In this document: positions 974 through 47,800 of the stretch, in pieces
How positions within the stretch are numbered: position 1 is the stretch's first letter
How the letters are laid out: every line of letters begins with the position of its first letter
From: Trypanosoma brucei
Taxonomy: Eukaryota
Direction of reading: 5' to 3'
Assembly: GCA_000002445.1 (NCBI GenBank)
Contig: CH464491.1
Location: 1,568,001 to 1,632,000, forward strand
DNA: 64,000 bases
Notes under the pieces: model-generated
What the model saw: the letters and a program-made list of their open reading frames with translations, nothing else
Told to the model about the DNA's origin: nothing
Databases searched by the model: none
Translations under genes and position numbers: made by a program

Positions 974-3847
974 ATGCAGCGCTCACCTCAATCATATGAG
1001 AGCTTTCTTGACGACGAGGAACTTGTTAAGCAGCTGATTGAGGCTACCGACGTGGATGAAGTTGTAGAGCGCATGGAAATAGAGCGTTACCATCACATTG
1101 CGCCCTTGCTACGGGAAATGGGACCGTATAATTGTGACTCAAAGAAACAACCAGGCTCTACGTTATCGAACTCTCAGCAACAGCAGTGGAATAGAGACGA
1201 ACCTTTTCACAATAATCCAGATGCGCGAACGAATGAAATGAAAAGAACACGCGATAGAGGTTTGCGTTACACCATGAATACCGCTTCCACCCCACCCCCG
1301 CCCCCACCAGAAACACTCTCCCCCATAGAGGATCCCCTTGAAAGGCCACGTGAGGAGATGAAGCCAACTAGAAGACGTTACACATCACCCGCACCCACGA
1401 AATCGCCATTACTCTCCAGCGAGAGAAAAAGGCAACCACCAACGTATGATGATCAGGACGAAAAACCTATCACCCATAGAATTCGTCGAAGACAAGCATA
1501 TAGTGCGGAAAGGCTGAGACCACCAAAGAGCAACACAAGTCGAGGGAGGCCACTCTCGCCGGCTAACCCCAGAGGCTACGCTGGACAGCAGAGGGCTCGC
1601 TCTTATGATCGGAAACCACCACCCCCATCGTCACGGCGGATTTCCCCACAGGATGAGTGTCCGAACGGGTTGGGGAAGTCACCTTCTAGTTATTCCTACT
1701 TTCGCCCGGCAGCCACCGCAAAGCCAGCATGGAGGGGTGTAAAGAATGCCCAACGTTACATGGATCTGTTTGCACCTCCTGCTGCTAACCCATCCGAAAA
1801 TCGTAGTCCATTGCGTCGGATTAAAGGTGGGTACATTGCGCCCCTTCCACCTCCTGACGGTCAATCAAGAAGAACACTATCGGCGAGGAAGCGTCCTCTT
1901 TCTCCGCCCGTTCCAGGCCGACGCCTAACACCACCAGTGGATCGTTACTTTCCTTTGAGCAGTGGTATTAGCCGGTGGGGCCGTATGGACAACGGCTATG
2001 ATTCAGAACTAACTGACGCATCAGAGGATGTACATCCCTCAGATGATGCACTTCAAGGCTACGCTGGTTACGATAATTATGTTGTTATTCCCCCACGTGT
2101 CGTAGAGAGGGAGCGGTGCGTGAGAAACCGTGTGCCAACTATGTCTCCGGCACGCTCCAGTATTCTTGTGAGCCCATGTAGATGTTTTTCTTCCCCCTGT
2201 GAGAGGAGTGGATCCTCCGATGCACAGAGGATGTGGAGATCACCACAAAGGACCCAACGAGGAACAAGATCACCCCAGGTAAGATTATCACCAGCCGTGG
2301 ATGATTCAAGAGAAAGTGAAAAGAACAAGAGCACGCGAGTGAAGAACGAAGACCTTAGTCGGAAAAATACTTGCGACGCAGGAATATCATTTCCTTCGCC
2401 GCGACAAAGGTTTAAGCCGCCCGACATGGTAACAAAGAAGGGAAATCACCGCGAAACCCAAACCTCTCCGCCACAACCCAGCCACAAGGAGGTCAAGAAT
2501 GCCGCCCTTTCACCACGCACGCTTCCAGACGAGAAGACGCCCCGCCCGGACGGCACGACAGAGCAACCGAGTACCAAATCTCCATCCCTCCCCGCTTCCA
2601 CGCGGGGGTCAAACATATCAGTTTCCTCGTCAGAAGGTGGGGGGAAGGATGAAGTTCCCATTGTGGATATTAGCAAAGAGAACAAGTCGTGTGACAACAG
2701 TCATTCACCTGACAGCGTTACTCATACATACAAAAATGTAGGAAATAAGATCTTGGATCGTAAAACTGCTGTAAGTCCGCGAGTCCACGATAAAGATAAG
2801 CGTGAGAGAAAGGGCAAGCGACAAAAGCGTATAAAACGGCGAAAAAACAATGCCCCTGACTCATCCACTGACCAGAGCAGTACGTCAGACTCAAGTTCAT
2901 CAAGTAACTTTTCCAGCGGTACACCATTTGATGAGTCACGGACAACGGAAAGAAAGCGTCGTCATCGCCGTACTCATCAGAAGTCGGGTGGCGATTCGCA
3001 CCGTCAGCAAAAGGGGAAATCAGCTCTAAGTTCCGACAACTCTCCTCTAAGAGATGATACGGCACACGCACAGGTGCCGAAAGTGTACCCCCCACTTACC
3101 AGCAGTCCTCAGAGAATTAGGAAACCTATTTGCCTACAACAGGATCCAGTTGTGCGACCGCAAGTGCAGTCAGCAAGCCGACCGCCTTTTGCGCAGACGG
3201 TACAGAGGCCTGTGTGCACTCCCGAACCGTTTATCTCATTTTCATCTCCTCCAAAGAGCAAGACGGATGTAAATGGCATTCAGCGCAGTGACAACGCAGG
3301 TCAAGGCGTTCCTTCTGTTAGCATACGAGTTGTGCCACCACCATCTCCAGGCCCACGTCGCGAACCGCCGAGCCCCACTGCCCCGAAAATGGGAGGAGTG
3401 AAGATTCCTTACATGTCGTATCTCCACACTTCGTCACCAACATCTGTAAGAGCTTCACAGTTGGGACCGGCGCAGCCGCAGCAGACCCAGTCAGCAGCAT
3501 CTGCAGCGACCCCCAGAAACGGAACTGGTGAACCCGTGTGGCGGAGCAGTGGTCATGATAGCGTTGGACGGAGTAATACGAGGGAACCTCATTTAAGGAG
3601 GAAGTGGGCTATTTGTGGGCATACACAGATACGTTCCCCACCGAGGGGTGGACGTTGTTCGTCGCAGCCTCCCCATCTACAGGCGCATGAATGGACGGCT
3701 AACGGACAACGAATGACAACAACTCGTCAAATTACTGAGCCGCCCCTCCCGATCACACCACGGCGGTCGGGCGCCACCACTCCTCAAAGACCAAACGGAT
3801 CATGCGTAAAGATAATCTCCAGCCCCTCGAGGGTAGCGCAGCACTGA
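974..3847 (+). CDS. Hypothetical Pro/Ser/Arg-rich low-complexity protein (957 aa)
   Basis: Long uninterrupted + strand ORF with an ATG at 974 and a pyrimidine-rich region with a (CA)n tract upstream. Short ordered acidic N-terminus (MQRSPQSYESFLDDEELVKQLIEATDVDEVVERMEIERY), then ~900 aa rich in P, S, R and T with many SP/RS/RR dipeptides and PPPP runs. No catalytic motif recognised. Confidence 0.5.
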   Translation: MQRSPQSYESFLDDEELVKQLIEATDVDEVVERMEIERYHHIAPLLREMGPYNCDSKKQPGSTLSNSQQQQWNRDEPFHNNPDARTNEMKRTRDRGLRYTMNTASTPPPPPPETLSPIEDPLERPREEMKPTRRRYTSPAPTKSPLLSSERKRQPPTYDDQDEKPITHRIRRRQAYSAERLRPPKSNTSRGRPLSPANPRGYAGQQRARSYDRKPPPPSSRRISPQDECPNGLGKSPSSYSYFRPAATAKPAWRGVKNAQRYMDLFAPPAANPSENRSPLRRIKGGYIAPLPPPDGQSRRTLSARKRPLSPPVPGRRLTPPVDRYFPLSSGISRWGRMDNGYDSELTDASEDVHPSDDALQGYAGYDNYVVIPPRVVERERCVRNRVPTMSPARSSILVSPCRCFSSPCERSGSSDAQRMWRSPQRTQRGTRSPQVRLSPAVDDSRESEKNKSTRVKNEDLSRKNTCDAGISFPSPRQRFKPPDMVTKKGNHRETQTSPPQPSHKEVKNAALSPRTLPDEKTPRPDGTTEQPSTKSPSLPASTRGSNISVSSSEGGGKDEVPIVDISKENKSCDNSHSPDSVTHTYKNVGNKILDRKTAVSPRVHDKDKRERKGKRQKRIKRRKNNAPDSSTDQSSTSDSSSSSNFSSGTPFDESRTTERKRRHRRTHQKSGGDSHRQQKGKSALSSDNSPLRDDTAHAQVPKVYPPLTSSPQRIRKPICLQQDPVVRPQVQSASRPPFAQTVQRPVCTPEPFISFSSPPKSKTDVNGIQRSDNAGQGVPSVSIRVVPPPSPGPRREPPSPTAPKMGGVKIPYMSYLHTSSPTSVRASQLGPAQPQQTQSAASAATPRNGTGEPVWRSSGHDSVGRSNTREPHLRRKWAICGHTQIRSPPRGGRCSSQPPHLQAHEWTANGQRMTTTRQITEPPLPITPRRSGATTPQRPNGSCVKIISSPSRVAQH

Positions 3848-4355
3848 TGGTTGTAGACGAGCGAGTGTGCGCGTGGAGGCAAGGCTTTACACTAAGGGGT
3901 GCTTGCGGTTTTACTATATGGAACTTTCATGCACATTTGCAATATTTTAAGAAAGGCTGCCAAACAGTTTGGTGGTTCTCTTAGTGTTTTGAGATATATA
4001 TTTTACCCCTTAGGTGTGTTAAAACTACTACATAGAGCAACAGTGTGCGAGGTGACGAAACATAAAGTTCTTTTACTTGTTTTTTTTAATTACGAATGCT
4101 TCTTTTTTTTTTTTTTGAGGGGAAGTGTGAACTACTGCGATGCTGTTCTTTATTAGATGCTGAGCGAAACGAAAGGGTACTGGATATAAGCGAAAAGAAA
4201 ATAATGGGCAGTAGAATAGGGAAAGAGATTGTTGGAAGGGAGCGGGAGACAAGTGGAATGGGGTTTGGTAGAGGGAGTGGTAGATGCATCTGCTTCAGTT
4301 AGAAGCGTTTATGTTGTTTTCCTATATTTTTTATGACCGTTTAAAGCATGCGGAC

Positions 4356-4372
4356 ATATATATATATATATA
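4356..4372. repeat. (AT)n microsatellite
   Basis: atatatatatatatata in the intergenic region upstream of RFC1. Confidence 0.9.
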
Positions 4373-4757
4373 AACCCTTTTCTGTCTTTTCTTTTCCGTT
4401 GTTATTAAGCGTGGGAGCACACAAGGAAACGTGGAACAACACTAAATTTAACCAATTTACGCGTTCTGGGCTGCATTACCTTACCGTCACCTTCACTTCT
4501 TTTCTATTTGTCTATGACGCATTTCTCTTGTTTGTGTGTCTTTCTTTTTCCTTCTACTTGGTCTGCTTTCATGGGGGTTGCCGTAAACCTACTGGAACCC
4601 CCTGACAACGGAAATGTTGTATTGAGGTGCTGGATCGTGCAGTGAAGGGGGGTTGGCTATTGGGTGCTAGAGTTCCCCGCACATAAGTACAATATAATTT
4701 TGTGTGCGCGCAGTTACGCACTTTTTTCGTTTGTACAGCTAAGAGAGACCGTTGACG

Positions 4758-6521
4758 ATGATGACCAGCAGTCCGAGTTCCATTGAAGTGCCCCACTCGT
4801 GGGCGGAGAAGTACAAACCAAAAACCATTGCACAGATGTGTTACCCCGTTACCGCAAATAAGTTGAAGCAATGGATGGAAGAATTTGAAGCCAATAGTTC
4901 CAAAATGAGGGGAGCACTACTCTCGGGACCACCTGGTGTTGGTAAGACGACATCTGTTTATGTTGTGGCTTCCGAGCTCGGGCGTGTTGTTGTTGAATAC
5001 AACGCCAGCGACTTCCGCAGCAGAAAATCACTGCGGGAGAACGTTAGCACCGTAGTTAATAACCGCACTTTCAGCAACACTTCCTCGTCCTACGCTAATA
5101 TTGTGCTGCTGATGGACGAAGTGGATGGGTGCGACATTGGCGGCGTCGGAGAAGTTATTCAAATGATCAAGAATACCAACGTGCCAATCATCTGCACGTG
5201 CAACGACCGGTGGCATCCAAAATTGCGCTCACTGCTGAACCACGTGGAAGACATCCGCGCTGGTCGACCCCCGTGTAACATAGTTGCCAACTACCTTTGT
5301 GATAAGGTACTGGCTCGCGAAGGCATCTCTCTTTCTAAACAGCTTCTGCAGGACATCATACAACGATCGGGAAGCGACATCCGCAGCATGCTCAACAATC
5401 TGCAAATGTGGTGCATCAACCAAACATCACTTCAGCAGAAGAAACTTGCGGAGTGCGCACTGCAGTCAGCAAAAGATGGTGATGTTGGCCTATTTGAAGC
5501 CGCCGAGGTATTTCTTCTGCAGGGGTCGTCGCGTGGTAGGCCCCGTTCCATTGAAGAGCTCCAGTCCACGTTCTACAACTCGGACCTTGTGGACATGTTC
5601 GTGCAGGAAAACTACCTTCACTTCAAACCTGAGGACCGTGATTGGATGGATGCAGTTGCCGAGGCAGCGTCTTCAATTTCACTCTCGGATCTAGCGCAAC
5701 GTATTATGTTCTTTGAGAACAACTGGTCCGTATCCCGGTCCCACGTACTTCTCTCCAGTATTATACCGTGTGCCCTAACTCGTGGTCATTACGAAACTTT
5801 TGTAACAGGGCAGCAGGCCATATTTGATCGACAACGTCCTGTGAAGTTTCCTTCATGGCTTGGTCAAAATTCAGCTGCTGGTAAAAACAAAAGGCTGCTT
5901 CGGTGCTTGACATTTCAGGCGATGGGTCACTCGAAGGGTATTAGCGGTACACAAGAGGATGTTCTGCTTGATTACATACCACGTGCCTGGGAGAGCAGAC
6001 TTACCGACCCATTAGCACAACGGGGGAAGGATGCCATTCCGGAAGTAATTGCTTTCATGGATCAGTACCACATCATGCGTGATGACTGGGAATTTATCCA
6101 GTCTGTTGCACACTTTAAGAAAATGCAGTCGGCGTCTCCAAACCCTGCTGCAGGAGATATTCCAGGAGGTATAAAAGCAGCCTTCACGCGAGAGTTCAAC
6201 AAGACACATCGTTTGGAAAGCTTTGCGAAGGGGGCGCTGCAACGGGTTGCCACCGATGGAATAGGGTTTGGAGAGGGGGAAGAAGACAACGAGGAAGAAG
6301 GAAGTGTTGCGGGAGCCTCACGCCCCACTGCGAAGAAAGCTTCCGCGAAAACTGCCGCGAAGCCGAAGAAGGCGGCGAAAAAGGAAGGTAACGAGAATGC
6401 AAAACCGAAGAAAGCGGCGGCCAAGACGGCGAAACCTGCGGGTAGGCGGGGGAGGAAAGCCACTCTTGTCGACTCTGATTCGGAACCGGAGTTTGAGAGC
6501 TACAGTTCCGATGACTATTAG
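4758..6521 (+). CDS. RFC1: Replication factor C large subunit (RFC1-like AAA+ clamp loader), lacking an N-terminal BRCT region
   Basis: Track ORF starts at a TTG (4752); first ATG is at 4758. RFC box II-like WAEKYKPKT, Walker A LLSGPPGVGKTT, Walker B LLMDEVDG, and the RFC1-diagnostic block PIICTCNDRWHPKLRSL...DIRSMLNNLQMW (compare human RFC1 PIICMCNDRNHPKIRSL...DIRQVLHNLSMW). C-terminal KA-rich basic tail (AKKASAKTAAKPKKAAKKEG...KPKKAAAKTAKPAGRRGRKA) and acidic end DSDSEPEFESYSSDDY. Confidence 0.85.
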   Translation: MMTSSPSSIEVPHSWAEKYKPKTIAQMCYPVTANKLKQWMEEFEANSSKMRGALLSGPPGVGKTTSVYVVASELGRVVVEYNASDFRSRKSLRENVSTVVNNRTFSNTSSSYANIVLLMDEVDGCDIGGVGEVIQMIKNTNVPIICTCNDRWHPKLRSLLNHVEDIRAGRPPCNIVANYLCDKVLAREGISLSKQLLQDIIQRSGSDIRSMLNNLQMWCINQTSLQQKKLAECALQSAKDGDVGLFEAAEVFLLQGSSRGRPRSIEELQSTFYNSDLVDMFVQENYLHFKPEDRDWMDAVAEAASSISLSDLAQRIMFFENNWSVSRSHVLLSSIIPCALTRGHYETFVTGQQAIFDRQRPVKFPSWLGQNSAAGKNKRLLRCLTFQAMGHSKGISGTQEDVLLDYIPRAWESRLTDPLAQRGKDAIPEVIAFMDQYHIMRDDWEFIQSVAHFKKMQSASPNPAAGDIPGGIKAAFTREFNKTHRLESFAKGALQRVATDGIGFGEGEEDNEEEGSVAGASRPTAKKASAKTAAKPKKAAKKEGNENAKPKKAAAKTAKPAGRRGRKATLVDSDSEPEFESYSSDDY

Positions 6522-15866: not shown

Positions 15867-16593
15867 AAACAAAGCCACGTTATGTGAGCATGTTTGGAAA
15901 TATTTTTGTGCGCTATCGGTTAATTGGAGATATCACCTCTTAAGTAACATCACTTGTACCTTCTACCTTTGCTTCCCCCTTCTTTCCTTTCCCTCTCAGA
16001 CATGCAAAAACGTTATTTTTCACTTGTGGTGACGGAATAGAAAAAAAGAGTGAAGAAAACACAAGTAGCTTACTTCAGCAGTTCTGATTGAACAATCAGC
16101 TTCGAAATAACATTTGATGGGGACAGAAATAGAGAGAGATAAAAGGGCAAAGTGAGGTAATTGTAATGTGTTGCCCTCTACATTTTTGTATTGCTGCCGA
16201 AATTAATCTCCCTCTTCCCTGCAATCTGCTGGTAGCGTTGCCATAGTTACTGGTTTACAGTTTTAGTTATGGAAAAAAAATCCTTCGAGAGTTTTCTTGC
16301 ATTTCCTGGAGACCCCTTTCCTACCCGCTGTGTCATTGCTGGCAATATTGCCTTTTTGTTTTCTCCACACTCTTTGCTTCGCAATTATCATCGTATGACC
16401 ACTACTTGACCAAGTAACTCGTGGTGGTTTGGTTCGGTCCCCCTCCTCTCGTGCTACGAATTGCGACCCTCACCAAGACAAGGCAGAGAAGGGGAGAAGA
16501 GTGAAACTGCGATATAGGGCTAGGGGTAGTAACTCCTTCAGAAGGAAAAAAAAAGAGTTAAGACAAAGAAAAACGCGTAGCACTTCAGGAGAA

Positions 16594-19500
16594 ATGATGG
16601 GAGAGCAGGAGAACGTTCGTTTCCTTTCCCCCACTGGAATTGTGCCGTTCGCGGCGGACTCACCGCGGGGATCAGATGTGATTCGCCGCTCATTTTCTCT
16701 GCCCGCAGCAACCGTAACTTTCTCGCTTCGGCAACTCAATCGCGACAAGTGCGAAATTGCCACACCAGTAGCCGTCGAGAACTGTTTCCAAGTGTTGCAA
16801 CGGCACTTTGAACCCTATATCTCAGCTAGTGCGGTTTGCAACACTTGCCTCCCGGGTAGCAGGCTTTATTTGCGATTTAACAAACTTACAAATGCTACCT
16901 TTCATTCGGAGCCCTCCTTACTGAACGTATATGTTTACGCAGTAGATCAAGCAGAGTCACGGACCCGTGCACTTCATGGCGCGGTGCGTGAGTGGCAGAG
17001 TATGATGAAGACAAGTACGGAGGGGAGTTGTTTAGTTATGCTTTATCACCAGGATCTTGTTGATGCAACGTCAACAAGTGCCGTGCAAGCTGCGGTTTTC
17101 GGTGGCGAAATAAAAATGCCAGATCAACGCAAGGCAGAGGCAGCTGCCTCTGCCATGGGACCTTATTTTGATGAACTGGGAGCGATGAAGTTTGGACCAC
17201 AGCAAATGTGCTCTTATTTACCCAATGAGGCCCCTACCCGCATAATCGAGCGGTTAACTGCTGCGTACCGTAATCTCACAATACAACTGACTAATATCTT
17301 CAACGCTTCACAGCAGCGGAGACCCGCCTATACGCCTCGCGGAGACACAGGTTTGAATTCCCCTCCAAATGAAGCATGGAGCTTACAGAGGTGTTGGCGT
17401 GCCGGGTACGATTTGGCTGCGCATTATCTTCAATTTGGTGCTGTAAACAAGGCAATGGCCATATTTTCCCGGATGTTTGATGTGTACTACTATCATTCAG
17501 ACGATTACAATTTTTTGACGAAGAAAGAGTCAATTGAACAATTGATAAGATTAAGCGACATGTTTCATCCTGCATCTTTCCCGGTCCAGCAGGGTAGATA
17601 CCCCTCTGTTTTGCAAGATGCCGCAGAACCTGGCGCTGGCCTCCTTTTCATTGTAGTGTGTGAGATGAAGTGTGCCTTGCTGTTGGAGAGGCGCGATTTG
17701 GCCTTTGCTCGCTTTAATTCATTTTTACAGTTAGCGCGAGAGAAATTCGCTGAAGATGGTGAATCTACCAAGGTCACTAACTCCTTGCAAATTGTTTTCC
17801 TGCTTCGTTTTGCTATAACTGCGATGCAAACGAACTGGGCTCATAATGGGGCGTTGGATGACCATTCTGAAGCAAGATGTGATGGATCAGAAGCATCGTT
17901 AAGCGAACGCCAGCAGTCGCATGAGTCTTCGCAACGGAATCAACCGCACCCACAGCAGGCGCAATCGGTGACTGATATGAGCTCGCCTCTGAGAAGTGGT
18001 GATCAACCCCACGACTCTATTAGTGTGTCGGTGTTTTCCGGCAACAGCTCTATGTCGATGCCTTGGCCAGATGCCGAGGTGGAATTAGGCAAAGAGGTGA
18101 TTCACGAAACCGTTGATGTTGATCAGTCGCCAGACACCACCAAACGACTGAAAGAACTATGCAGAATGCTTAAACTAGAGTGGGTTGAAAAAAGCGTGGA
18201 AAGTGGTGGCGATAAGTTGTTCGTTCAGTTGGCAGATGAGGTATTGGAGCTAGTTTCTGATGCAGGTGCTCTTCTCGGCTATAGTGAAACCGGTGAAGTG
18301 GTGAAGGAAAGTGCAGTCGCAACATTTGGGGTTCCAGAGGTAGATTCCGTTGATGCCTTTGTTTCGTTTTACCGAGCGCTCACTGAAGCAGTAGCGCTCT
18401 ACTACCGCCTTCTCAACTATCGGCACCGCGAACACGCACTCCTTTACAAATTAGCATGTTCGTTTTCCGTAAAAGAACCCGAAAAAACAGTGAGGCTATG
18501 CCAGATTTGCCTCCTTCCATTTGTACAACAGTGTGGATGGCTCCAACTCCAGGTAATCATTCACCGCCTTTTGGTGGAGGCCATGGAACGTGTCATATGC
18601 CAACGCAAAGATCAGCAGCGGTTCGTACTTGAAGAAGATGTCACTTCAATGAAGGAGTCACTGTTGCGTCTCATCGCCGCGTGTGGAGAAAATGAACCGT
18701 TAAAACGGGAGATTGAGATGCTGGGGGGAAAAGGGTTGAATGCAGGGTCACTGTGGTGTCGCTTGCGGCGCTTCATGAGGGACGAGGGTTCGTTCCGTTT
18801 TTCACTTACAGAAGAAAATGGACCGAAGCAGGTATACGATGATGAAGGGGGTTCTGATGAGAATGCCGTTGGTTTATCGTGCTTCAAACTAACTGGTTTA
18901 TTAAAATACGCACAAGCCACTTGTCTGCGTAACAAGCCTATATTGGGTGATGCGAGTGAGTTTGGACTACTTGTCGCATCAAATGGTGGTGGCGACGACG
19001 GTAGTAGGGGATCATCTATTGGGCTGCAAGTTAACATTGGTGATACACTATATCTGTGCTTTGAGGCGCGTTGTCTGTTCAACATCCTTGAGTGTGATGA
19101 TGAGGAAGAGCAATCACAGGGACCCCATATGACTGAATCTCTCGTTCCCAGCGCTACGCTGGTGTCGAAGAAAGATTGGGACGATGATGATGAAACAATC
19201 CATATCGTGGACGTTGTGGACATTATATCCACTTACTATTCGGAACAGAACCAAAAAGTACAGTGGGTGTGGGAATTTAGGGCCTGTCACGCGGGTAATT
19301 ACCGTCTTCATGATATAACGTTCCAGGTAGGTGTGACAAAACTTGTGTACGAGCATAACGTAATTCCCCCTCTTCCTTCTGTAGAGATGTTTACCCCTAC
19401 CGAAACTACAGGCTCTCCCTTGAACAGCTTCCGTTGTGACTTCGATAAGGCGGAAACTGTGGCTTTGGGATGTCTTTTTACAGTTCCAGAACCGGATTTG

Positions 19501-21756
19501 GGTATTAAGATGCAATTGGCACCCGTAGGGGAGCCGCATTGCTTTGGCGATTCGCTAACCTTCTTTGACGTCCAAATTGATCTGGAGGAGCCATTGCTTT
19601 GTATGAGGAGCACACCCGCTTCAACTGTGGACACAGCAGGTATCGGGGGAGGAAAAGATAGTCACACAACCGTTAACTCAATTGGTGTCGTGGGAAATAC
19701 GTGTAGGTTTGAGTCCCTTAGTTTGCAAGTGCCTGCATCTCTCGGTGTAAGAACGTTGACAGATGGCGGAACTTGTACGATGTTGTCATTGGATTGTCGC
19801 TCTACGCTAAATGACACGGCAACGTCTACAACGATGTCTGTGCAACATGACTCGTCGACACTGGCCTGCCTCTTCCTGACGCGGCCGAAGAATTGTCCAC
19901 CCTTGCGACTGTCAAATCAATGCACCTCTGTTTTACAGGGTTTGACCCGTAGTGGAAGGGGTAACTCTGCGCCGCTCGTGAATGACGTGATCGCGTGGCT
20001 TGTGGAAGGTGATGGGCAGAGGGACAGTTCGCTCCTTATTGTCCGTGTCAAGCACATCACTGGTGCTTTTACCACTGTTCCCATTAACGAGAGTTTTGTC
20101 ATGTCACAACTCCCACCCGTTGTCACACGTGACGGAGAGAACAGTACCGATGGTGAGACCACAAAAAAAATTGATAGGATTGCGCAAGATGTACTTCCTG
20201 TACACTTGGATGGTAGCATTTGGCCACACCGAAAGCAGCAAAGTTGCTTCCGTATTTGTCTAGATGACCATGATGAGGAAAAAATTGACATGCAAAAGCA
20301 AAGTAAAGCAGTGGGGGACAGTAACAAAAGTGGTGAGGGGCTGCCGATACAAACCAACCAGCTGCGCTTGTCGCTACCTTTGCTTCCCTTATATACGACA
20401 CTGTCCGAAGAACGTGCGCATCTGTCCATCTGTCGCGAGGGTCATATGGACCCCAGTGGCGGCGACAACCGTGTCAGCGTTCCCATTCCCTACAAAATGA
20501 CAGCAGCTTTCGCTGTGCAATACTCTTTCAAGTGCCATCAAGGTCGCGTTTACTGTCTTGTGCGAGCGAAAAATGTGATGAAGGGAACATCGCTTTGGCT
20601 TCGCGGCGCGCTACTTGAGTTAGTGGATGGGGATCGGTATTATGAACTGTCCCGCGTGTCGTCTGCTCTGGATCACTTGATGTTACGTGAGTGGAAGCCG
20701 GAGGAGTCGGTTCACTTGTTCTTCGAACTTGCACCTTCGTCCAATGCGCCACCGCAGGTGGATGAGAGACGCCACAGTGTAAGGGTGCAGTTAATTTATT
20801 CCAATTGGTCTGTAACGGAGAGGCTGAAACCCATGGAAGAGTATATCCTACGACCAATCCGATCTTCTGGCACCAAATTACCTTCCCCTATGGCGGAAAC
20901 TGCCCATTTTTCCGGTGTGATGAAGAGCAGTAGCAACTGGATGGAGCACACTAACGATACTCCACTGAGTCCCGCTTCGACAGAAACTCTGGAAGCGGAG
21001 ATAGGAGATGAACCGGAGGTAAATGCGGAGGTGGTGCGGGTTCAGTACGATATTTCTCATTTAGAAAAGTTGTACAGTTCGTGTAACACATTTAACGGTC
21101 CTCTGGCGAGTTTTACATCCAAGCATTCATGCCTCTTCAACGTTGATATTACCGCACAACCTCTCACGTGGAGTTCGGCGGGCCCAAACAAGACACCCAA
21201 GTCGATTTCTCTGGAGGCAAACAGATCCTCTCTCGGATGCACGATTGAGTTTACTGACGGGCCCGGCGCCAGGTATCTACCGGGTGATTGTGTTTTCCCC
21301 GTTGGTGAGCCCGTTCAATTCACCGTTACATTAGATCCTCTTGCACACAACTGGCCGGAGGACAGTGCGAGTGAAGAGGAGTTCATCGTCTGTCTAAAGG
21401 TTGACCCCGCATTTTGGTTTGCGGTTGGTAAACAAAGGTTGCGGTGCAGGCTGTCCATGATGGAGGAAACGGTTCTTCGCTTCACGGCGATACCTCTACC
21501 ACCGGGGGAAGAAGGCACGCACCGTGCAGTGTCGGTCGATTATCCCCTCCATCAATATCAAGTGATTGGAAATATCCGAAAGAAGGGCAGTGATGAGAGG
21601 GTTGAAGGCGAATTCAATGTTCCCACACCAACAGTTGAACTCCACTCGATACCGCGTCAAAGTGTAAGTGAAACCGACGGAGCGAAACAAGGGGAAAATG
21701 TGGCTATTGAAGTGGTTCAGTTCAGTGCGCTCATGCGAATACGACAACAACAATGA
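16594..21756 (+). CDS. Large hypothetical protein (~1720 aa from first ATG), no recognised domain
   Basis: Track ORF begins at TTG 16429 with a basic low-complexity leader; first in-frame ATG is at 16594 (MMGEQENVRF), downstream of pyrimidine-rich tracts at 16300-16400. Uninterrupted 5.1 kb ORF on the array strand, mixed composition, no motif I can assign. Confidence 0.55.
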   Translation: MMGEQENVRFLSPTGIVPFAADSPRGSDVIRRSFSLPAATVTFSLRQLNRDKCEIATPVAVENCFQVLQRHFEPYISASAVCNTCLPGSRLYLRFNKLTNATFHSEPSLLNVYVYAVDQAESRTRALHGAVREWQSMMKTSTEGSCLVMLYHQDLVDATSTSAVQAAVFGGEIKMPDQRKAEAAASAMGPYFDELGAMKFGPQQMCSYLPNEAPTRIIERLTAAYRNLTIQLTNIFNASQQRRPAYTPRGDTGLNSPPNEAWSLQRCWRAGYDLAAHYLQFGAVNKAMAIFSRMFDVYYYHSDDYNFLTKKESIEQLIRLSDMFHPASFPVQQGRYPSVLQDAAEPGAGLLFIVVCEMKCALLLERRDLAFARFNSFLQLAREKFAEDGESTKVTNSLQIVFLLRFAITAMQTNWAHNGALDDHSEARCDGSEASLSERQQSHESSQRNQPHPQQAQSVTDMSSPLRSGDQPHDSISVSVFSGNSSMSMPWPDAEVELGKEVIHETVDVDQSPDTTKRLKELCRMLKLEWVEKSVESGGDKLFVQLADEVLELVSDAGALLGYSETGEVVKESAVATFGVPEVDSVDAFVSFYRALTEAVALYYRLLNYRHREHALLYKLACSFSVKEPEKTVRLCQICLLPFVQQCGWLQLQVIIHRLLVEAMERVICQRKDQQRFVLEEDVTSMKESLLRLIAACGENEPLKREIEMLGGKGLNAGSLWCRLRRFMRDEGSFRFSLTEENGPKQVYDDEGGSDENAVGLSCFKLTGLLKYAQATCLRNKPILGDASEFGLLVASNGGGDDGSRGSSIGLQVNIGDTLYLCFEARCLFNILECDDEEEQSQGPHMTESLVPSATLVSKKDWDDDDETIHIVDVVDIISTYYSEQNQKVQWVWEFRACHAGNYRLHDITFQVGVTKLVYEHNVIPPLPSVEMFTPTETTGSPLNSFRCDFDKAETVALGCLFTVPEPDLGIKMQLAPVGEPHCFGDSLTFFDVQIDLEEPLLCMRSTPASTVDTAGIGGGKDSHTTVNSIGVVGNTCRFESLSLQVPASLGVRTLTDGGTCTMLSLDCRSTLNDTATSTTMSVQHDSSTLACLFLTRPKNCPPLRLSNQCTSVLQGLTRSGRGNSAPLVNDVIAWLVEGDGQRDSSLLIVRVKHITGAFTTVPINESFVMSQLPPVVTRDGENSTDGETTKKIDRIAQDVLPVHLDGSIWPHRKQQSCFRICLDDHDEEKIDMQKQSKAVGDSNKSGEGLPIQTNQLRLSLPLLPLYTTLSEERAHLSICREGHMDPSGGDNRVSVPIPYKMTAAFAVQYSFKCHQGRVYCLVRAKNVMKGTSLWLRGALLELVDGDRYYELSRVSSALDHLMLREWKPEESVHLFFELAPSSNAPPQVDERRHSVRVQLIYSNWSVTERLKPMEEYILRPIRSSGTKLPSPMAETAHFSGVMKSSSNWMEHTNDTPLSPASTETLEAEIGDEPEVNAEVVRVQYDISHLEKLYSSCNTFNGPLASFTSKHSCLFNVDITAQPLTWSSAGPNKTPKSISLEANRSSLGCTIEFTDGPGARYLPGDCVFPVGEPVQFTVTLDPLAHNWPEDSASEEEFIVCLKVDPAFWFAVGKQRLRCRLSMMEETVLRFTAIPLPPGEEGTHRAVSVDYPLHQYQVIGNIRKKGSDERVEGEFNVPTPTVELHSIPRQSVSETDGAKQGENVAIEVVQFSALMRIRQQQ

Positions 21757-41855: not shown

Positions 41856-44800
41856 ATGTTTGAGAGTCTGTACGAACTCTTTTCGACGTCTCCAGGTAGA
41901 ACACCCTCCAATGTAGTTTGCAACAATGAGATGCCACCAGCGTTAATTGTGGTCATGCTTAAAGCTGATGAGCAGCGGTCACACACTTCACAGTCGGAGG
42001 GAGAGGGACGGAGGTTGTTGAACGGTTTGATGGCCGCCTACCCATCGTCCAATTACATGTTTGTTATCGATGCTGCAGAAAGTACTTCGGAGGTGTTTGC
42101 AGCGGTAACTGGAGAGTACAACTTGCTTCGTGAACTTTCTCCAAAATTCTGCTACGTGGTGTTTGCGGCACTTCGGGACCCCGAAGTGGTTGTTCCTTGC
42201 ACCAGCGTGTTTAACCCGGCGTGGGTCGGTGAGTTGCGTCGGATGTTGGATGGTTTACGTAACCCTCGTCACATGGTGGCAGAGTTACTGCTGCGTAAGG
42301 AATTGTGCATGCAGTTGGAGGGGCTTCTTCGGTTTACGGCGGAATGTCGATGGATAGGCGATGAATCGCTTTCTGCAAAACTTTCACGCCTGGTGGATTC
42401 CCGTGTCACTGATTTGAGCAGTAGTAAGAATTACTCCATGCCTTCCTGCGGAGGGCTGCAGGTTAGCTGTATTTCCATGCTCAAGGAAGATGAAGAAGCG
42501 GGTTCCCCTCCGCTAGTCCTCCAAACCGGGATTCGCATACGAGGCGTTGTACCCGACTTAACTAGGTCGTTAAGACTGTCAGACTGCAATGAACAAGAAT
42601 ATAGTCCCCCACTACTGCTCGTCGTTCTGCACGCAGGGGAATCTATTAGGGAAAATATCGTGGATGGCAGCGTTGGGCGGGATTCGTCGGTGCAGGAATT
42701 GGATTGCTTGTTACAGCAGTTAAGTTCTAGTGATGAAGTTTTTGTGTCGCTTGGTGGCTATGTGGTCGTTCCCCTATGCTCTGCCGCCGCGGCGAGGAAG
42801 CAGTGGCTCGATACAAAAGAGGTTCTGACAAGAAGGGTAACGTATGATGGTGCTGACTCCCATGCTCTAATTCGGGAAATGTTGACTCAGGCACTTCTCC
42901 CTTTGAGGAAATGGCACAGAAAGCATCACACTCCTGCGGAAGATGAAAAATCAAGTTCCCCAAGGAGCAGGGTAGCAATATTGTTTTACACACCTCAAGA
43001 ACCGTGTTCTGTGCACCAGTGTGTGCATTCGATTGTTCGTGAACAACTCGCTTTCCTTCAGGTGCCACTATTTTGTATCACAACTCCGGTTGGCGTTGAT
43101 ACCGCTTACAAACTACTAGATATCAGCAGTACGAGTGGTGAGCGTTGTATTTGCACCCTTGAAGCAAGTTGCACCGCCAATGTCAACCACGATAGCGAGT
43201 GTGGTGGTAAGGGTCAAGCGTGTTACGGGGTGCTGGGATCATCCACAGGTGAGCGAGTCGCCCAGGCGGCACTAACAGCAATTCGTAGCGTCACTCACCT
43301 TGGTGTTTCTGTCACCGTGCATTCTATCGACAACTCAAAAGAAGACACACGCTTCGAAGTTGGTGACCTACGCCAGGGTTTGGACACCACGGTGCTTATC
43401 TCTCGACCGGTGCAGAACCCGGATCGGGGGGCGTCTGCGAAGCACCAACTTACAATATTAGCTTATTCTGTTGATAAGAGCAGGTATGACATTGTACGTT
43501 TCATGCCTTCAGAAACTGTGAAAGAGGTGCCTTCCTCTGAGCACTCATGGTGGAGCCAGCTTCAAATTGCCGGGAGGTTGCTGAAATCCATGCCTTCCAA
43601 AGCACCCCCAAGTGTCTCACAGCTTGGAAACACTTTGATGCAACATTCTGAGGAGGTGCCATCTCTTGGGGGACTGGCCGAACAACAGCACAAGCTGGTC
43701 GAGTGGCTTCTCTCCAACTACGGTACACAAGAACTGGAGGGCACACCTTATACATTGGTGATTGGATGGTGCCCGTCCCCTTATATGGGCAACGGAAGCA
43801 CCGAAGAGGAGGACGGGTGGCCAACTAGTAGTGGGTACCTTTCAGCGTCTCCATGCATAGCGGACCCTTTGGTAGAGCTTCGGTGGACAAACTTTCCCTT
43901 CTGCGACGGCGCGCCGGTAACGACAATATCAGCGATCATAAGTCGAACGTTTCCCTTTGAGGCACTTGTGGAGAGTACTGCTTCCAACTCGCTCGCGCTT
44001 GAAACGCTGAGAAACGACTCTGCCGAAATCCGTCTCGCGTCCATGAAACACATCCCTGAACTGAGGGAGGCGCGGGCGCGCATCGTTGCATTTCTTAGCG
44101 TGGATACGTCGACTGGTGCCATGTCGCTACAACAGCTTGTGCCAGCGAAGACGGAAGACGATGTCAAAGGTGGTATGTTGCACACCTTTAGGTCACTTCG
44201 GTTACATCAAATGTACTGTGTGGTGCACCTCGCACTGCGATGTTCGCTTGACTCGTCGTTCTTCATGCAAAATGATGTTATCATTGCAGATGGTATTACA
44301 TTTATAACCCCAAGAGCAAGCGTACACGATGTAAGAGTTACTACCGTAACTCACTGCAGGGCAGATGTGGAGTGGAAGGGGACAGCAACATCTGTGAGAA
44401 TAGAATGTAAACCCATGAAATGGATCTCAACTCAAAAAAATAGTGAGCGGTCACCCGGCGGAATATCCGATGTAACAGATAGTGAAGTGGTTGGAGCAGA
44501 CGGTGCCACCACAATTGTAGAGTACTCTTGCGACGGGTTCCAAGCCGCGGTCGCGGGGCTACAACCCTTCACGCTATATCACCTGCGTGTGACGCCCATT
44601 GGGGATTCAACCCACGGTGCGATGATTAGGGAGAAACTGGAGGAAGGGGAAGCGTACTTTGCTACGTGTGTAGATGCAGGCGTCATCGATACCCTTAGCG
44701 TAGAATCCATCGTGCCAGATAGTGAGACACTGAAACTAACAGTTGCTCATCCCGTCCTTTGCAAAACAGCCGCCATTAGTCGCACACGCTCACTGGTACT

Positions 44801-47800
44801 CACAATAACTCCCACCATGTCAATGAGCAACTCTCTGGACAAAGAAAAGCCACTTCAAATGAGACGTAGGAAATTTTCTGAGGGCGAAAGCGTGGTGACA
44901 ACATTTACCTTACAGAAAGTGGAACGTGTACAAGTTTGCATTGAGTTCAACATGAAGTTGTGTTTCGGGCATGTTTACCTGGAAGAAACATCTAGTACCT
45001 GTAGTCACACGTGTGGTAGTGATGATAATGATGCGCAGTACATAGACGACAGTGGACAAGTGCGCGGCGTATGTGTGTGGTTTGCTAGGGGTGTGTCACC
45101 ATGGACAAAGGAGGTTGCGCTGTGTGGTAATAGCTCCCCCAGGTCGTTAAGTGCACCTCCCATGTGCTCATCGCCGACGCAACTTTTGGATGGCTACCGC
45201 ATCAGTCGTTCCGACACGCCGTTTGCTGAGATGCGTAGTGATTTCAAAGCTTCAAACGATCTTAAGGAACACTCCACAGAGGAGAATGTGGTGGTTACGG
45301 AAGGGAAGGAAGGATGTGGAGAAATGGAGTGGAGCGAGTCAAGTATTGTTTCAGTATCTCACGAAAAACGGTTATCAAAATATGTAGTGGATGACAGTGA
45401 CCCCAGCACCACCGGTGAAGCGACAAGGTCGTTGTATTGTGTCTTTTCGAAAGATCCCACATTCAGAGGAGTGCGTTTTTTAACGGACATGAGTTCTCAG
45501 GTGCTGTTAGCCAGTTTTGCTGTGGGTGGTAACAGTAGCGGATACATCTCGGCTGTGATCATGCCCCTAAATGTTTCAGTCGATAATCTTGACGGTGACA
45601 ACACCTCATTAAAAGTGAGTTACGCGCACGTTGATCGTGAGCGGCCGGTGACGGTAAAACTTGTTCAGCACCTCGAGCAACGGTACCAACGTGTCGGAAG
45701 AAAAACCATGCACTTATATGCTGTAACCGACGTTTGTTGCCGTAGCCGTGAGGAAGTGCTTGGGGTGAACGGTGTTAAAACTAAGAAAATGTTGCTTTCA
45801 TGGACCTGTGGCGCCCAACAGGAGGGGTCTTCTCTCTTCGTGCTTATAGGCAGCAAGAGATACAAACCGAAACCAAACAATACATTATTGATAGATTGCA
45901 ACGACACGCTCGTTGCAGCTCCTGTGTGCTTCTGTGGTTCTAACATCATCAAAGAAACATGTTCCATATACTTGGTTCCGCCACCTCCACCTTTATCGTC
46001 GCAATACTGCACAGTGAGGGCCGTAAAAGATGAAGCTTTGCATATTTTTATCACCGAGAAGTATTGCGTTCTATTGTATCGATGCCTTGCTTGTGTGAGT
46101 GATTTAATAATGGTGTTACTTCATGTGGGTGGTGACAACGCCACCGAACTTCCCTGTTCACAACAAAAATTGAGTGGTGGGGAAACGGGAGTACATCTGC
46201 AGGTACCGTTGGATGCAGTGGATCCGGAAAAAAACACAGTTGAGCTATGCGTCGAAGTTCGAGTTAGAAATTCTGCTTGTTGTATTGGGGACAACCCTTT
46301 AGTCTCGGATTGGAGGGATCGCACTGGTTTCGGCGGGAGTGGTAGCTCAAGTAGTTTGATCAGTACTAACATTTTGAAGGGGCGTCGTCAGCAACCTATT
46401 CTACTCATCCCGTGGAGCACCTCTGAATCTTTTGATGTACCTGTAGCATCCAGCACCTTGATCAAAAACCTTCAGGTGACCGAGCTCCACTCTACAAGAG
46501 CCAAATTATCGTGGACAACAGTTCCTTACAAGGAGACAGCGGACGAAAAACTTGGTGTGTTTTTGACGGTACAGTGTGCAGCGGCGGAGGGACATGTTAA
46601 GAAATACAAAGAATACGTCGTTTGCTCTGCACGATCTTTCCTTTTGCGCGGTCTCCTTCCTGCAACGCCATACCATGTCGAGTTGTCCCTGGACGGTGGA
46701 TGCCCACCCGGTCGTGTTGTATTTGTTACACCGCAGGATATGGAAGATAATGTGCTGCGCAAATTGATACCGTCAATTACGGCGGTGTGGGCATCACGAA
46801 GAGGAAGAAACTGGCAACACGTCATGAGGGCAGCTTGCGGGGGCACGGATGACGCGGAACAGCAGCGTTTCGTGCGTCTTCAATTGGATATTCCAAATGT
46901 GGAAAGCAAACACTGGACCGTATCCCCAAGTTCTGCACAAATTATAAAGGAGGAAATTAGCGGCTGTGGCACCTTGCGACTTGCAGTGACTGCCAAAGTC
47001 CAGGTACTACTTGTGGCCAAGTCGGGGAAGTTGCTGCAAATGTGGAGTACTGTAAGCGGGACCCAGAGCCAAACAGTGTCTTTTGCTTTTCCGATTTGTG
47101 GGGGAAATCCGGCTGCGAGTTGGCCTCATATTGAACTGAGAATGGACTCGTTTGCACAGTTTAGCCCAGCGGCAACGGAGGACGAAACAGGTGATGAAGT
47201 ATCCCCAAGCGTTGACCAAGACTCTTGGTCATTTAGTGAAAAAGACAAAATAAGTGACCTAAGAGCAGGCCACTTGGTTAGCCGGAAGCACCTCGGCGAT
47301 AGAACCAACTGTCCCTTTGCCAACAGCCATGTCACTGTGCACCTTGTTGGATGCCCTCAATTGATTAAGGTGGACGAAAACTGCTGTGTAGTTGAGTGGA
47401 GTGGTTCTTGTTCGGGTTACGCGATTCATTGGCGAGTTGGACCCTCGGGTGTCGTTAATACGGAACACATTGAGGCAGAGCGCAAACAAAAACCGAGCAT
47501 AACGGTTGATGTTTCAGCGTTGGATACGGTTGTGCTCCTTTTCTCTCTGCATGGGGCAGATTGTGCCTCCAACTGTGTACTCTTCGCTGTATTAGTCCCT
47601 CCAAAAGTCAGCAAGCAGATTGGCTGTTGTTGCGAAACGACACGAGGACTGTCCGTACCAACGTCACCTCGATGTTCCAACAAAGGATTGATAAAGGTGG
47701 ATTACACACGTGGGGGTCAACCCGGTTCTACCTTAACCGACGGTGAGTCTTTGGGACAGAACGGTGTAAGTGGTGTTAGCAGTGGACTTTGTTGCACTGC

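Follow-up and report, generated by a model that had tools for sequence, protein, structure and literature searches.

An RFC1 clamp-loader subunit without a BRCT region in Trypanosoma brucei and its relatives

Results

Identity and domain structure of the protein

An open reading frame on the + strand of a 64-kb stretch of Trypanosoma brucei DNA (the window) very probably encodes the large (A-position) subunit of RFC, the canonical PCNA clamp loader, in a form that lost its N-terminal region in the Bodo/trypanosomatid ancestor and in which the clamp-loading core and a disordered tail remain. The ORF extends from 4752 to 6521, with the first ATG at 4758 and the stop codon at 6519-6521, and the complete coding sequence (4758..6521) specifies a protein of 587 aa. 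This product is 100% identical over 100% of its length to database protein P0001 (EAN79528.1, CBH17519.1), and the matching annotation, 'replication factor C, subunit 1, putative', is carried by 100% identical proteins in T. brucei, T. b. gambiense and T. equiperdum. Since the identity extends over the full length of the annotated protein, the start codon agrees with the public gene model. The gene was thus already annotated, and nothing new is added here as to what it is.

All features described below lie on the + strand. The protein begins MMTSSPSSIEVPHSWAEKYKPKT, a 14-aa leader that is followed from residue 15 by RFC box II (WAEKYKPKT, residues 15-23, 4800..4826), in which W15, K18, Y19 and P21 do not vary among 22 Euglenozoan RFC1s. 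The AAA+ ATPase core (~residues 15-180, 4800..5297; PF00004, 9e-12; pLDDT 80-96) contains Walker A (GPPGVGKT, residues 57-64, 4926-4949, with K63 and T64 invariant), Walker B (DEVD, residues 120-123, 5115-5126, with E121 and D123 invariant) and the invariant sensor-1 residue N149, and all three elements are unchanged across 72 RFC1s. The RFC1-type lid (residues 184-227, 5307..5438; PF25361, 40.2 bits against a cut-off of 34.9) has the sensor-2 GxDxR motif in the form GSDIR, with D207 and R209 invariant. A collar region, placed by mapping onto yeast Rfc1 numbering, is helical (~residues 240-300, 5475..5657; pLDDT ~76-95), and the RFC1 C-terminal (A') domain (residues 307-482, 5676..6203) matches PF08519 at 5.1e-41 (140.8 bits against a cut-off of 23) and covers that profile in full (1-158).

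Counterparts of the yeast separation-pin and external-site residues were located with the same numbering map. In the collar, F246 corresponds to F552 of the yeast external separation pin and Y273 to F582 beside the internal pin; in the A' domain, W323 corresponds to W638 (internal pin) and F364 to F666. W323, F246 and F364 are invariant in 24/24 sequences compared. Yeast R477, R464 and R681 are represented by R170, R157 and R379, and every member of the BRCT-less clade has a basic residue (R, K or H) at these positions. The external site differs from that of yeast at R476 (to G), R511 (to G) and H556 (to E). The BRCT-bearing Euglenozoa show identical changes, which therefore do not track BRCT loss. 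The AlphaFold model has a pLDDT of 78, with the core mostly >85, and its top 20 PDB fold matches are all chain A of Rfc1/RFC1, the first being 8dr4_A, 'RFC:PCNA ... without NTD'.

Absence of BRCT coding sequence

No match to the BRCT family (PF00533) was found by Pfam search of the 587-aa protein, even at E<=1. Sequence and in-frame translation place a TAA at 4740..4742, 18 nt 5′ of the ATG, which rules out an N-terminal extension in that frame. The intergenic region (3848..4757) is broken by stops in all three frames and shows no BRCT coding potential: the BRCT profile was negative, and ORFs of 68-85 aa within it have no Pfam matches. The flanking ORFs, including an upstream ORF of 957 aa, likewise lack Pfam domains. 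The intergenic region also contains a T-run (~4100-4116) and a (TA)n run (~4359-4372), followed by a tract rich in pyrimidines (~4480-4571) that is likely to be the trans-splicing signal. A BRCT profile search of the six frames of the window, and of L049 and L050, found nothing; in a positive control, a leave-one-out version of the profile recovered the BRCT of the relative L048 at 7e-35. Neither the PIP-box pattern Qxx[ILMV]xx[FYW][FYW] nor an APIM motif is present anywhere in the T. brucei protein. Human RFC1 has an N-terminal PIP box (F6/F7; PMC1888830), and the region that holds it is missing here.

Two explanations would remove the need to invoke a loss from RFC1. If the gene model were an artefact, a BRCT encoded upstream would have been missed because of a frameshift, an intron or a wrongly called start. 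Apart from the unusual shortness of the protein nothing points that way, and an upstream BRCT was rejected on the in-frame stop, the stop-rich frames and a negative profile that does work on L048. The 957-aa ORF offers no candidate domain, the same short N-terminus recurs in independently assembled genomes of >20 named species, and to our knowledge cis-splicing is almost absent in trypanosomatids; such an artefact is extremely improbable. Equally improbable is an identity as Ctf18, Elg1/ATAD5 or Rad17/Rad24, the large subunits of alternative RFC-like complexes, which naturally have no BRCT. A weak match to the Rad17 P-loop family (PF03215, 4e-10) is seen, but it is seen in all RFC large subunits, whereas the A' domain is RFC1-specific and the lid scores above its cut-off. 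Among solved structures the best relatives by sequence are human RFC1 (3.5e-75) and yeast Rfc1 (4.7e-62), 45-60 orders of magnitude ahead of Ctf18 (1.7e-16), ATAD5 (3e-7) and RAD17 (9e-4); RFC1 also ranks first by fold, and in the tree the protein groups with the BRCT-bearing RFC1s of Perkinsela and Euglena. A Ctf18, Elg1 or Rad17 identity was rejected on domains, sequence ranking and fold ranking. A sequence-only reading of this DNA had described a ~587-aa RFC1, distinct from Ctf18, Elg1 and Rad17, that starts directly at box II and has no BRCT N-terminus. Of the two observations that it named as refuting, a BRCT encoded upstream and a best match to Ctf18 or Elg1, neither was made when tested here. 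The missing BRCT is genuine, the RFC1 assignment holds, and the start is nearly exact given the 14-aa leader; the RFC1-specific block that it cited, PIICTCNDRWHPKLRSL...DIRSMLNNLQMW, lies at residues 143-218.

Distribution of the short form

More than 40 orthologues, including that of Bodo saltans, whose N-terminus is complete, have 0-48 aa (typically 10-30) ahead of box II, and absence of BRCT is common to all trypanosomatid orthologues and Bodo. PF00533 is present in the RFC1s of Perkinsela (2e-11), Euglena longa (6e-12) and the environmental relative P0047. In a neighbour-joining tree calculated without support values, the BRCT-less sequences all fall into one clade, whose sister is the Perkinsela group, and the distribution therefore looks like a single ancestral loss. 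P0047 and a second environmental relative, P0044, come from contigs with kinetoplastid-like same-strand gene arrays.

Outside kinetoplastids, a census in a representative library gave ten short RFC1 representatives without BRCT, among them giant-virus-like sequences and possibly truncated gene models (Chrysoparadoxa, Neoconidiobolus); this census established no second BRCT-less cellular lineage. RFC1-type large subunits encoded on giant-virus contigs (IMG/VR GVMAGs) have the RFC1 C-terminal domain, and about half are scored as BRCT-less because <15 in-frame codons precede box II. They are viral, not cellular orthologues, and some (L021, L013) carry BRCT. Their identity to the giant-virus-like query P0092 is 23-43%, and P0092 in turn shares just 35% identity with the protein of T. 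brucei.

The nearest BRCT-bearing relatives, Perkinsela sp. and Euglena longa, share 35-37% core identity with T. brucei RFC1 and an acidic-then-basic, alanine-rich tail, but they keep PF00533 and end in a basic cluster without an acidic cap. Compared with eukaryotic RFC1 in general (yeast Rfc1, human RFC1/p140), box II, the AAA+ Walker A and B motifs and sensors, the RFC1-type lid, the collar, the A' domain, the internal-pin tryptophan, the external-pin phenylalanines and a lysine-rich disordered C-terminal tail are all held in common. The T. brucei protein differs in being without the N-terminal 300-550 residues, and with them BRCT (no PIP box was found), and in the acidic/Ser cap that follows its basic tract where typical RFC1s end in a basic cluster. 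Engineered truncated RFCs (yeast without the BRCT region; the human RFC1 construct 6vvo) have essentially the same boundaries and start just before box II, but that of T. brucei arose naturally and has become fixed across an entire clade.

The basic tail is shared with BRCT-bearing RFC1s

Residues 498-587 (6249..6518) are predicted to be disordered, with pLDDT <50 over most of their length and no secondary structure. They comprise an acidic stretch, GEEDNEEEGSVAGA (residues 507-520, 6276..6317, net -6), matched in position by an acidic stretch in most of the Euglenozoan RFC1s aligned; a basic K/A-rich tract (residues 521-571, 6318..6470) with 18 K/R and 14 A in 51 residues, net +16; and a terminal acidic/Ser cap, DSDSEPEFESYSSDDY (residues 572-587, 6471..6518, net -7). 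The tract ends in RRGRK (563-567); the protein has no other NLS-like cluster. In all Euglenozoan sequences aligned, a K/R-x-K/R basic cluster closes the tract.

Tail statistics over ~130 RFC1s place the T. brucei tract within the usual range: its densest 40-aa window holds 15 K/R, against 14-16 in BRCT-bearing mammalian and insect RFC1s and 9-13 in BRCT-bearing Euglenozoa. Human and yeast tails align to it, an equally lysine-rich disordered tail ends the BRCT-bearing RFC1s of animals, yeast, Euglena and Perkinsela, and a similarly alanine-rich one occurs in BRCT-bearing Euglena longa, its environmental relative P0048 and the Perkinsela-like P0052. Since the tail coexists with BRCT, these comparisons argue that it is an ordinary, ancestral feature of RFC1 and not a BRCT replacement, and a lineage-specific gain of the tail was rejected on these statistics. 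The sequence-only reading had correctly noticed the basic K/A tail and the acidic CK2-type end; its proposal that the tail is a lineage-specific swap for BRCT found no support. The main correction is that the K/A tail is generic to RFC1 and that what sets the clade apart is its acidic cap. The likeness to kinetoplastid histone H1 and other AK-rich tails that it remarked on is one of composition (K, A, P-rich; disordered): homology was not detectable, no linker-histone family appears among Pfam matches of the protein at E<=1, and the tract occupies the position of the basic tail found in all RFC1s. Kinetoplastid H1 is not known to have a globular domain, so Pfam could not detect an H1 likeness in any case.

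Two further accounts would have the lost function taken over elsewhere. According to one, a histone-H1-like K/A tail was gained after BRCT loss and took over DNA tethering. The strong charge and predicted disorder of the tail suit this idea, as does its length after the FTREFN motif, ~100-175 aa in trypanosomatids versus ~50-95 aa in BRCT-bearing RFC1s. The extra length, however, consists mostly of acidic/Ser and Ala expansions and not of added basic residues, and the tail sequence is poorly conserved between genera; together with the matching K/R density, alanine richness and alignability of tails that coexist with BRCT, this makes a swap unlikely. According to the other, the gene underwent fission, and a stand-alone LigA-type BRCT protein encoded elsewhere still works with RFC in trans. 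Nothing direct favours it, although the loose tethering between BRCT and core in yeast (PMC9293009) makes action in trans conceivable. The best 120 matches of a Euglenozoan RFC1-BRCT profile include no trypanosomatid protein, a weak search because the list is swamped by bacterial NAD-ligase (LigA) BRCT fragments, which make up almost all of it; nor was a BRCT found within the window. Fission is still less probable than a swap, and simple loss of the BRCT region is the preferred reading.

The acidic cap is lineage-specific

An acidic, serine-rich cap after the basic tract is lineage-specific (36/44 vs 1/33). In T. brucei it contains S-x-x-D/E sites at S573, S575 and S583, and a further site of this type, T569, lies just upstream inside the basic tract. 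The pattern SDSE.EF..SSDD is conserved in eight Trypanosoma species. The lineage-specific part of the C-terminus is this cap, which cannot itself bind DNA. Bodonid-type ends (EVVIL, EIIVDDE) look SIM-like; strict SIM, PIP and APIM patterns are absent from the T. brucei tail, and for want of the strict SIM pattern there this impression is speculative.

Discussion

The lost region is the one that carries the BRCT ('ligase homology') domain in other eukaryotes and, in human RFC1, a PIP box as well. From box II through the AAA+ ATPase, the lid and the collar to the A' domain, the clamp-loading core is retained in full, and a disordered tail of ~90 aa follows it. Assembly with RFC2-5 and ATP-dependent PCNA loading are predicted for T. 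brucei RFC1. With RFC2-5 and ATP, the complex would open PCNA and bind the 3′ primer-template junction in its central chamber, where W323 would act as the separation pin, and ATP hydrolysis would lead to ring closure and release. The external 5′-DNA site known from yeast would be half present, with the collar pin and most basic shoulder residues kept and the duplex-clamping, DNA-tethering BRCT gone. Because of this, behaviour close to that of engineered yeast RFC without BRCT would be expected, with normal loading at primer-template junctions and less help at nicks and small gaps; most likely, then, the protein works with normal PCNA loading and a weakened external site. In T. brucei, iPOND shows RFC1 to be enriched on nascent DNA (bioRxiv 10.1101/468660). 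Yeast RFC without BRCT still loads PCNA, its DNA binding stays within ~two-fold of the wild-type level (PMC9293004), and the yeast BRCT is dispensable for viability and clamp loading (PMC9293009, PMC9293004), which makes it an accessory and not a core domain of RFC1.

A whole eukaryotic clade that includes important parasites thus replicates and repairs its DNA with a natural counterpart of the laboratory 'RFC without BRCT'. Structural work from 2022 reportedly tied the BRCT domain to the loading of PCNA at nicks and small gaps, and kinetoplastids, being naturally without it, therefore offer a natural test of how far the external DNA site is essential. A further question is whether, and by what means, BRCT loss is compensated in their base-excision and gap-filling repair. 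Our literature search returned nothing specific on BRCT loss or RFC1 function in trypanosomatids.

The basic tract most likely supplies nuclear import, non-specific electrostatic affinity for DNA, or both. A human RFC1 fragment (734-1147) that includes the basic tail is cytosolic (PMC1888830), which counts against import. The acidic cap is a kinetoplastid addition and plausibly regulates the basic tract when phosphorylated by CK2. A stronger version couples the two events: loss of the BRCT tether in the Bodo/trypanosomatid ancestor would have been accompanied by gain of an acidic, hydrophobic, serine-rich cap as a phospho-regulated module, a DNA-end tether giving way to a regulated protein-protein or autoinhibitory switch. 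We regard this as a long shot. Acting as a DNA mimic, such a cap might fold against the basic tract or the external DNA site; alternatively, it might recruit RFC to a partner at repair sites. Its forms are the Trypanosoma pattern given above and a bodonid-type KRP..LTFID.

The T. brucei RFC1 gene and its surroundings

The RFC1 open reading frame occupies positions 4752–6521 of the forward strand, with its first ATG at 4758, and encodes 587 aa. The predicted protein starts with MMTSSPSSIEVPHSWAEKYKPKT and enters RFC box II at residue 15; the RFC1 block quoted in the sequence-only reading corresponds to residues 143–218. Over its full length it is 100% identical to T. brucei TREU927 EAN79528.1 (“replication factor C, subunit 1, putative”), as it is to the T. 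b. gambiense and T. equiperdum RFC1 entries. The ORF listing and the identity to an annotated entry confirm the earlier proposal of a short RFC1 ORF with box II near its start, and the gene is real, correctly identified and previously annotated.

The 64-kb window contains 19 ORFs of 220 aa or more, every one of them on the + strand, as expected if the genes are transcribed together as one trypanosomatid polycistron. Several of these ORFs are very large, among them one of 1775 aa (16429–21756, +) and one of 2030 aa (41856–47948, +). The 5′ neighbor of RFC1 is a 957-aa ORF (974–3847, +) of low complexity, rich in Ser, Pro and Arg, for which no Pfam match was obtained. The intergenic sequence upstream of RFC1 contains a T-run (4100–4116), a (TA)n run (4359–4372) and a long pyrimidine-rich tract (4480–4571) that is likely to serve as the polypyrimidine signal for trans-splicing of RFC1 mRNA.

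The protein is RFC1 rather than an alternative large subunit

In Pfam searches the RFC1-specific C-terminal domain PF08519 matched residues 307–482 (5.1e-41), the RFC1-type lid PF25361 exceeded its cut-off, and the AAA core was also matched. Among solved structures, the best sequence matches were human RFC1 (3.5e-75) and yeast Rfc1 (4.7e-62), whereas alternative large subunits scored far worse (Ctf18, 1.7e-16; ATAD5, 3e-7; RAD17, about 1e-3). An AlphaFold model made from a 72-sequence alignment was confident for residues 11–487 and disordered from about residue 498 on. When this model was compared with the PDB using Foldseek, each of the top 20 matches was Rfc1/RFC1 chain A, led by a yeast structure “without NTD”. 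Sequence, Pfam and fold results thus bear out the RFC1 assignment; the Ctf18/Elg1 alternative, which a better reciprocal hit would have indicated, is rejected.

The BRCT domain is absent and was probably lost in a common ancestor

No BRCT domain was detected in T. brucei RFC1 by Pfam, even at E≤1. An upstream BRCT joined to the gene by an exon or an unnoticed frameshift would have accounted for this, and is excluded. An in-frame TAA (4740–4742, +) lies 18 nt 5′ of the ATG, the 910-nt intergenic region is interrupted by many stops in each forward frame, and neither the small intergenic ORFs nor the downstream 408-aa ORF contain Pfam domains. A search profile derived from six Euglenozoan RFC1 BRCT domains found nothing at E≤10 in a six-frame translation of the whole window. 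As a positive control, a leave-one-out version of the profile recovered the BRCT from raw DNA of a BRCT-bearing relative (L048, 7e-35). For the window itself and for two loci of a deep-branching BRCT-less relative (L049, L050), its matches did not rise above noise (E above 1). The absence noted from the sequence is therefore real.

PF00533 was found in none of the best 46 homologue matches (P0001–P0046), which include every named trypanosomatid RFC1 (eight further Trypanosoma species, Leishmania, Leptomonas, Porcisia, Novymonas, Strigomonas, Angomonas and Phytomonas), Bodo saltans and environmental relatives. With the same Pfam release it was present in Perkinsela sp., Euglena longa and four environmental relatives (P0047, P0048, P0050, P0052). 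In the alignment, BRCT-less proteins begin 0–48 residues (typically 10–30) before box II, and BRCT-bearing proteins carry a block of ~90 aa upstream of it. The Bodo saltans N-terminal fragment opens with Met and 23 residues ahead of LWADKYKP. In a neighbor-joining tree of 505 well-occupied core columns, calculated without support values, the BRCT-less sequences form a single clade whose sister comprises BRCT-bearing Perkinsela, P0047, P0050 and P0052, with euglenids outside. The absence is a clade-wide ancestral loss, and the simplest reading of these sequences would be a single event on the Bodo and trypanosomatid stem, after the Perkinsela lineage diverged.

Some trypanosomatid-type RFC1s (P0032, P0037, P0039) reach 899–953 aa, a length that derives from large low-complexity insertions within the AAA+ and A′ domains, not from a BRCT. 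Angomonas RFC1 has poly-Asn insertions. One 4569-aa representative protein (P0135) has an RFC1 match, 57% identical, at residues 2202–2800; this is probably a gene call that read through a kinetoplastid-like polycistron, not a true fusion.

The basic tail is general to RFC1, and the acidic cap is lineage-specific

The sequence-only reading had proposed that a histone H1-like K/A tail replaced the BRCT as a DNA-binding appendage. The basic tract (residues 521–571) contains 18 K/R and 14 A, with a net charge of +16, and human and yeast C-termini align to the T. brucei tail by phmmer. In ~130 RFC1s, the tail was taken to start past the conserved FTREFN motif and its most K/R-rich 40-aa window was scored. 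The K/R count is 15 for T. brucei, 14–16 for mammals and insects with a BRCT, and 9–13 for Euglenozoa with one. Alanine-rich tails also occur in BRCT-bearing Euglena longa, its environmental relative P0048 and the Perkinsela-like P0052. The basic tract thus occurs alongside the BRCT and is older than its loss, and an appendage swap is not supported. The likeness to histone H1 is one of composition.

A K/R-x-K/R cluster closes the basic tract in all Euglenozoan sequences, and RRGRK (residues 563–567) is the only stretch of T. brucei RFC1 that resembles an NLS. A role in nuclear import is thus a reasonable inference but a tentative one, as a human RFC1 fragment that includes the tail was cytosolic (PMC1888830).

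The basic tract is followed by an acidic, serine-containing cap, DSDSEPEFESYSSDDY (6471–6518, +; residues 572–587). The last 15 residues are net negative in 36 of 44 members of the BRCT-less clade, versus 1 of 33 BRCT-bearing RFC1s; typical RFC1s terminate in a basic cluster. The cap takes the form SDSE.EF..SSDD in Trypanosoma, long serine runs with SDSD at the end in Leishmaniinae, and a short hydrophobic-acidic motif following KRP in bodonid-type proteins. By sequence comparison, then, the cap is a lineage-specific part of the RFC1 C-terminus. The co-distribution of cap and BRCT loss is seen in one clade and so counts as one event. Three S-x-x-D/E sites (S573, S575, S583), with T569 just upstream as a fourth, fit the earlier suggestion of a CK2-type acidic end. 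The protein represents a clamp loader naturally devoid of the BRCT and bearing an acidic C-terminal cap.

Among P0002–P0044, the cap, where present, is acidic, serine-rich and partly hydrophobic; Angomonas RFC1 lacks it. Bodonid-type ends (KRP..LTFID, EVVIL, EIIVDDE) look SIM-like, and the T. brucei tail contains no strict SIM, PIP or APIM motif.

The remainder of the external DNA site is largely conserved

Two 2022 cryo-EM studies of yeast RFC describe a second, external DNA site, formed by the Rfc1 BRCT, the AAA+ “shoulder” and the collar, that binds 5′ duplex at gaps and nicks. Yeast Rfc1 residues 296–688 were reconstructed from a printed alignment, in agreement with 23/23 residue numbers quoted in those papers, and mapped onto 22 Euglenozoan sequences and human RFC1. 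No variation was seen in the Walker A/B residues, in the internal pin (W323 in T. brucei, W638 in yeast) or in the external pin (F246 and F364 in T. brucei, F552 and F666 in yeast). Yeast R477, R464 and R681 correspond to T. brucei R170, R157 and R379 and are basic (R, K or H) across the BRCT-less clade; four BRCT-bearing relatives have N, S, L or G at the R681 position. At the position of yeast Q474 (T. brucei R167), human RFC1 and every Euglenozoan sequence have R or K, and N481 (N174) is kept in most sequences and is T or E in several. Three external-site positions in T. brucei are unlike yeast (R476 to G, R511 to G, H556 to E); Euglenozoa that keep the BRCT show identical differences, so nothing points to decay of the rest of the site after the loss. 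Kinetoplastid RFC would keep its complete clamp-loading core, together with the half of the external site that lies outside the BRCT, and would probably behave as the engineered BRCT-lacking form does. In human RFC1 the N-terminus also carries a PIP box (PMC1888830); T. brucei RFC1 contains neither a PIP nor an APIM motif.

[quoted passage not shown] This absence would fit weaker binding to lesions or nicks when the BRCT is missing. It is not evidence for it, because several BRCT-bearing species, e.g. C. elegans, also lacked RFC enrichment in the same table (PMC10220248).

Other BRCT-less RFC1-type proteins

A nascent-DNA proteomics preprint reports enrichment of RFC1 at T. brucei forks and does not discuss its architecture (10.1101/468660); in a limited literature collection, no paper describing BRCT loss from trypanosomatid RFC1 was found. 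Ten short RFC1 representatives from a 1.8-billion-protein library also lack a BRCT, none confidently placed in another cellular lineage. RFC1-type large subunits with PF08519 are common on giant-virus contigs (IMG/VR GVMAGs) and also occur on a giant-virus-like 136-kb contig; the loci concerned are L001 (6001–7638) and L002–L047. Fewer than 15 in-frame codons precede box II in about half of the 27 giant-virus loci checked, and two (L021, L013) do encode a BRCT. BRCT-less RFC1-type proteins are thus not unique to the kinetoplastid clade.
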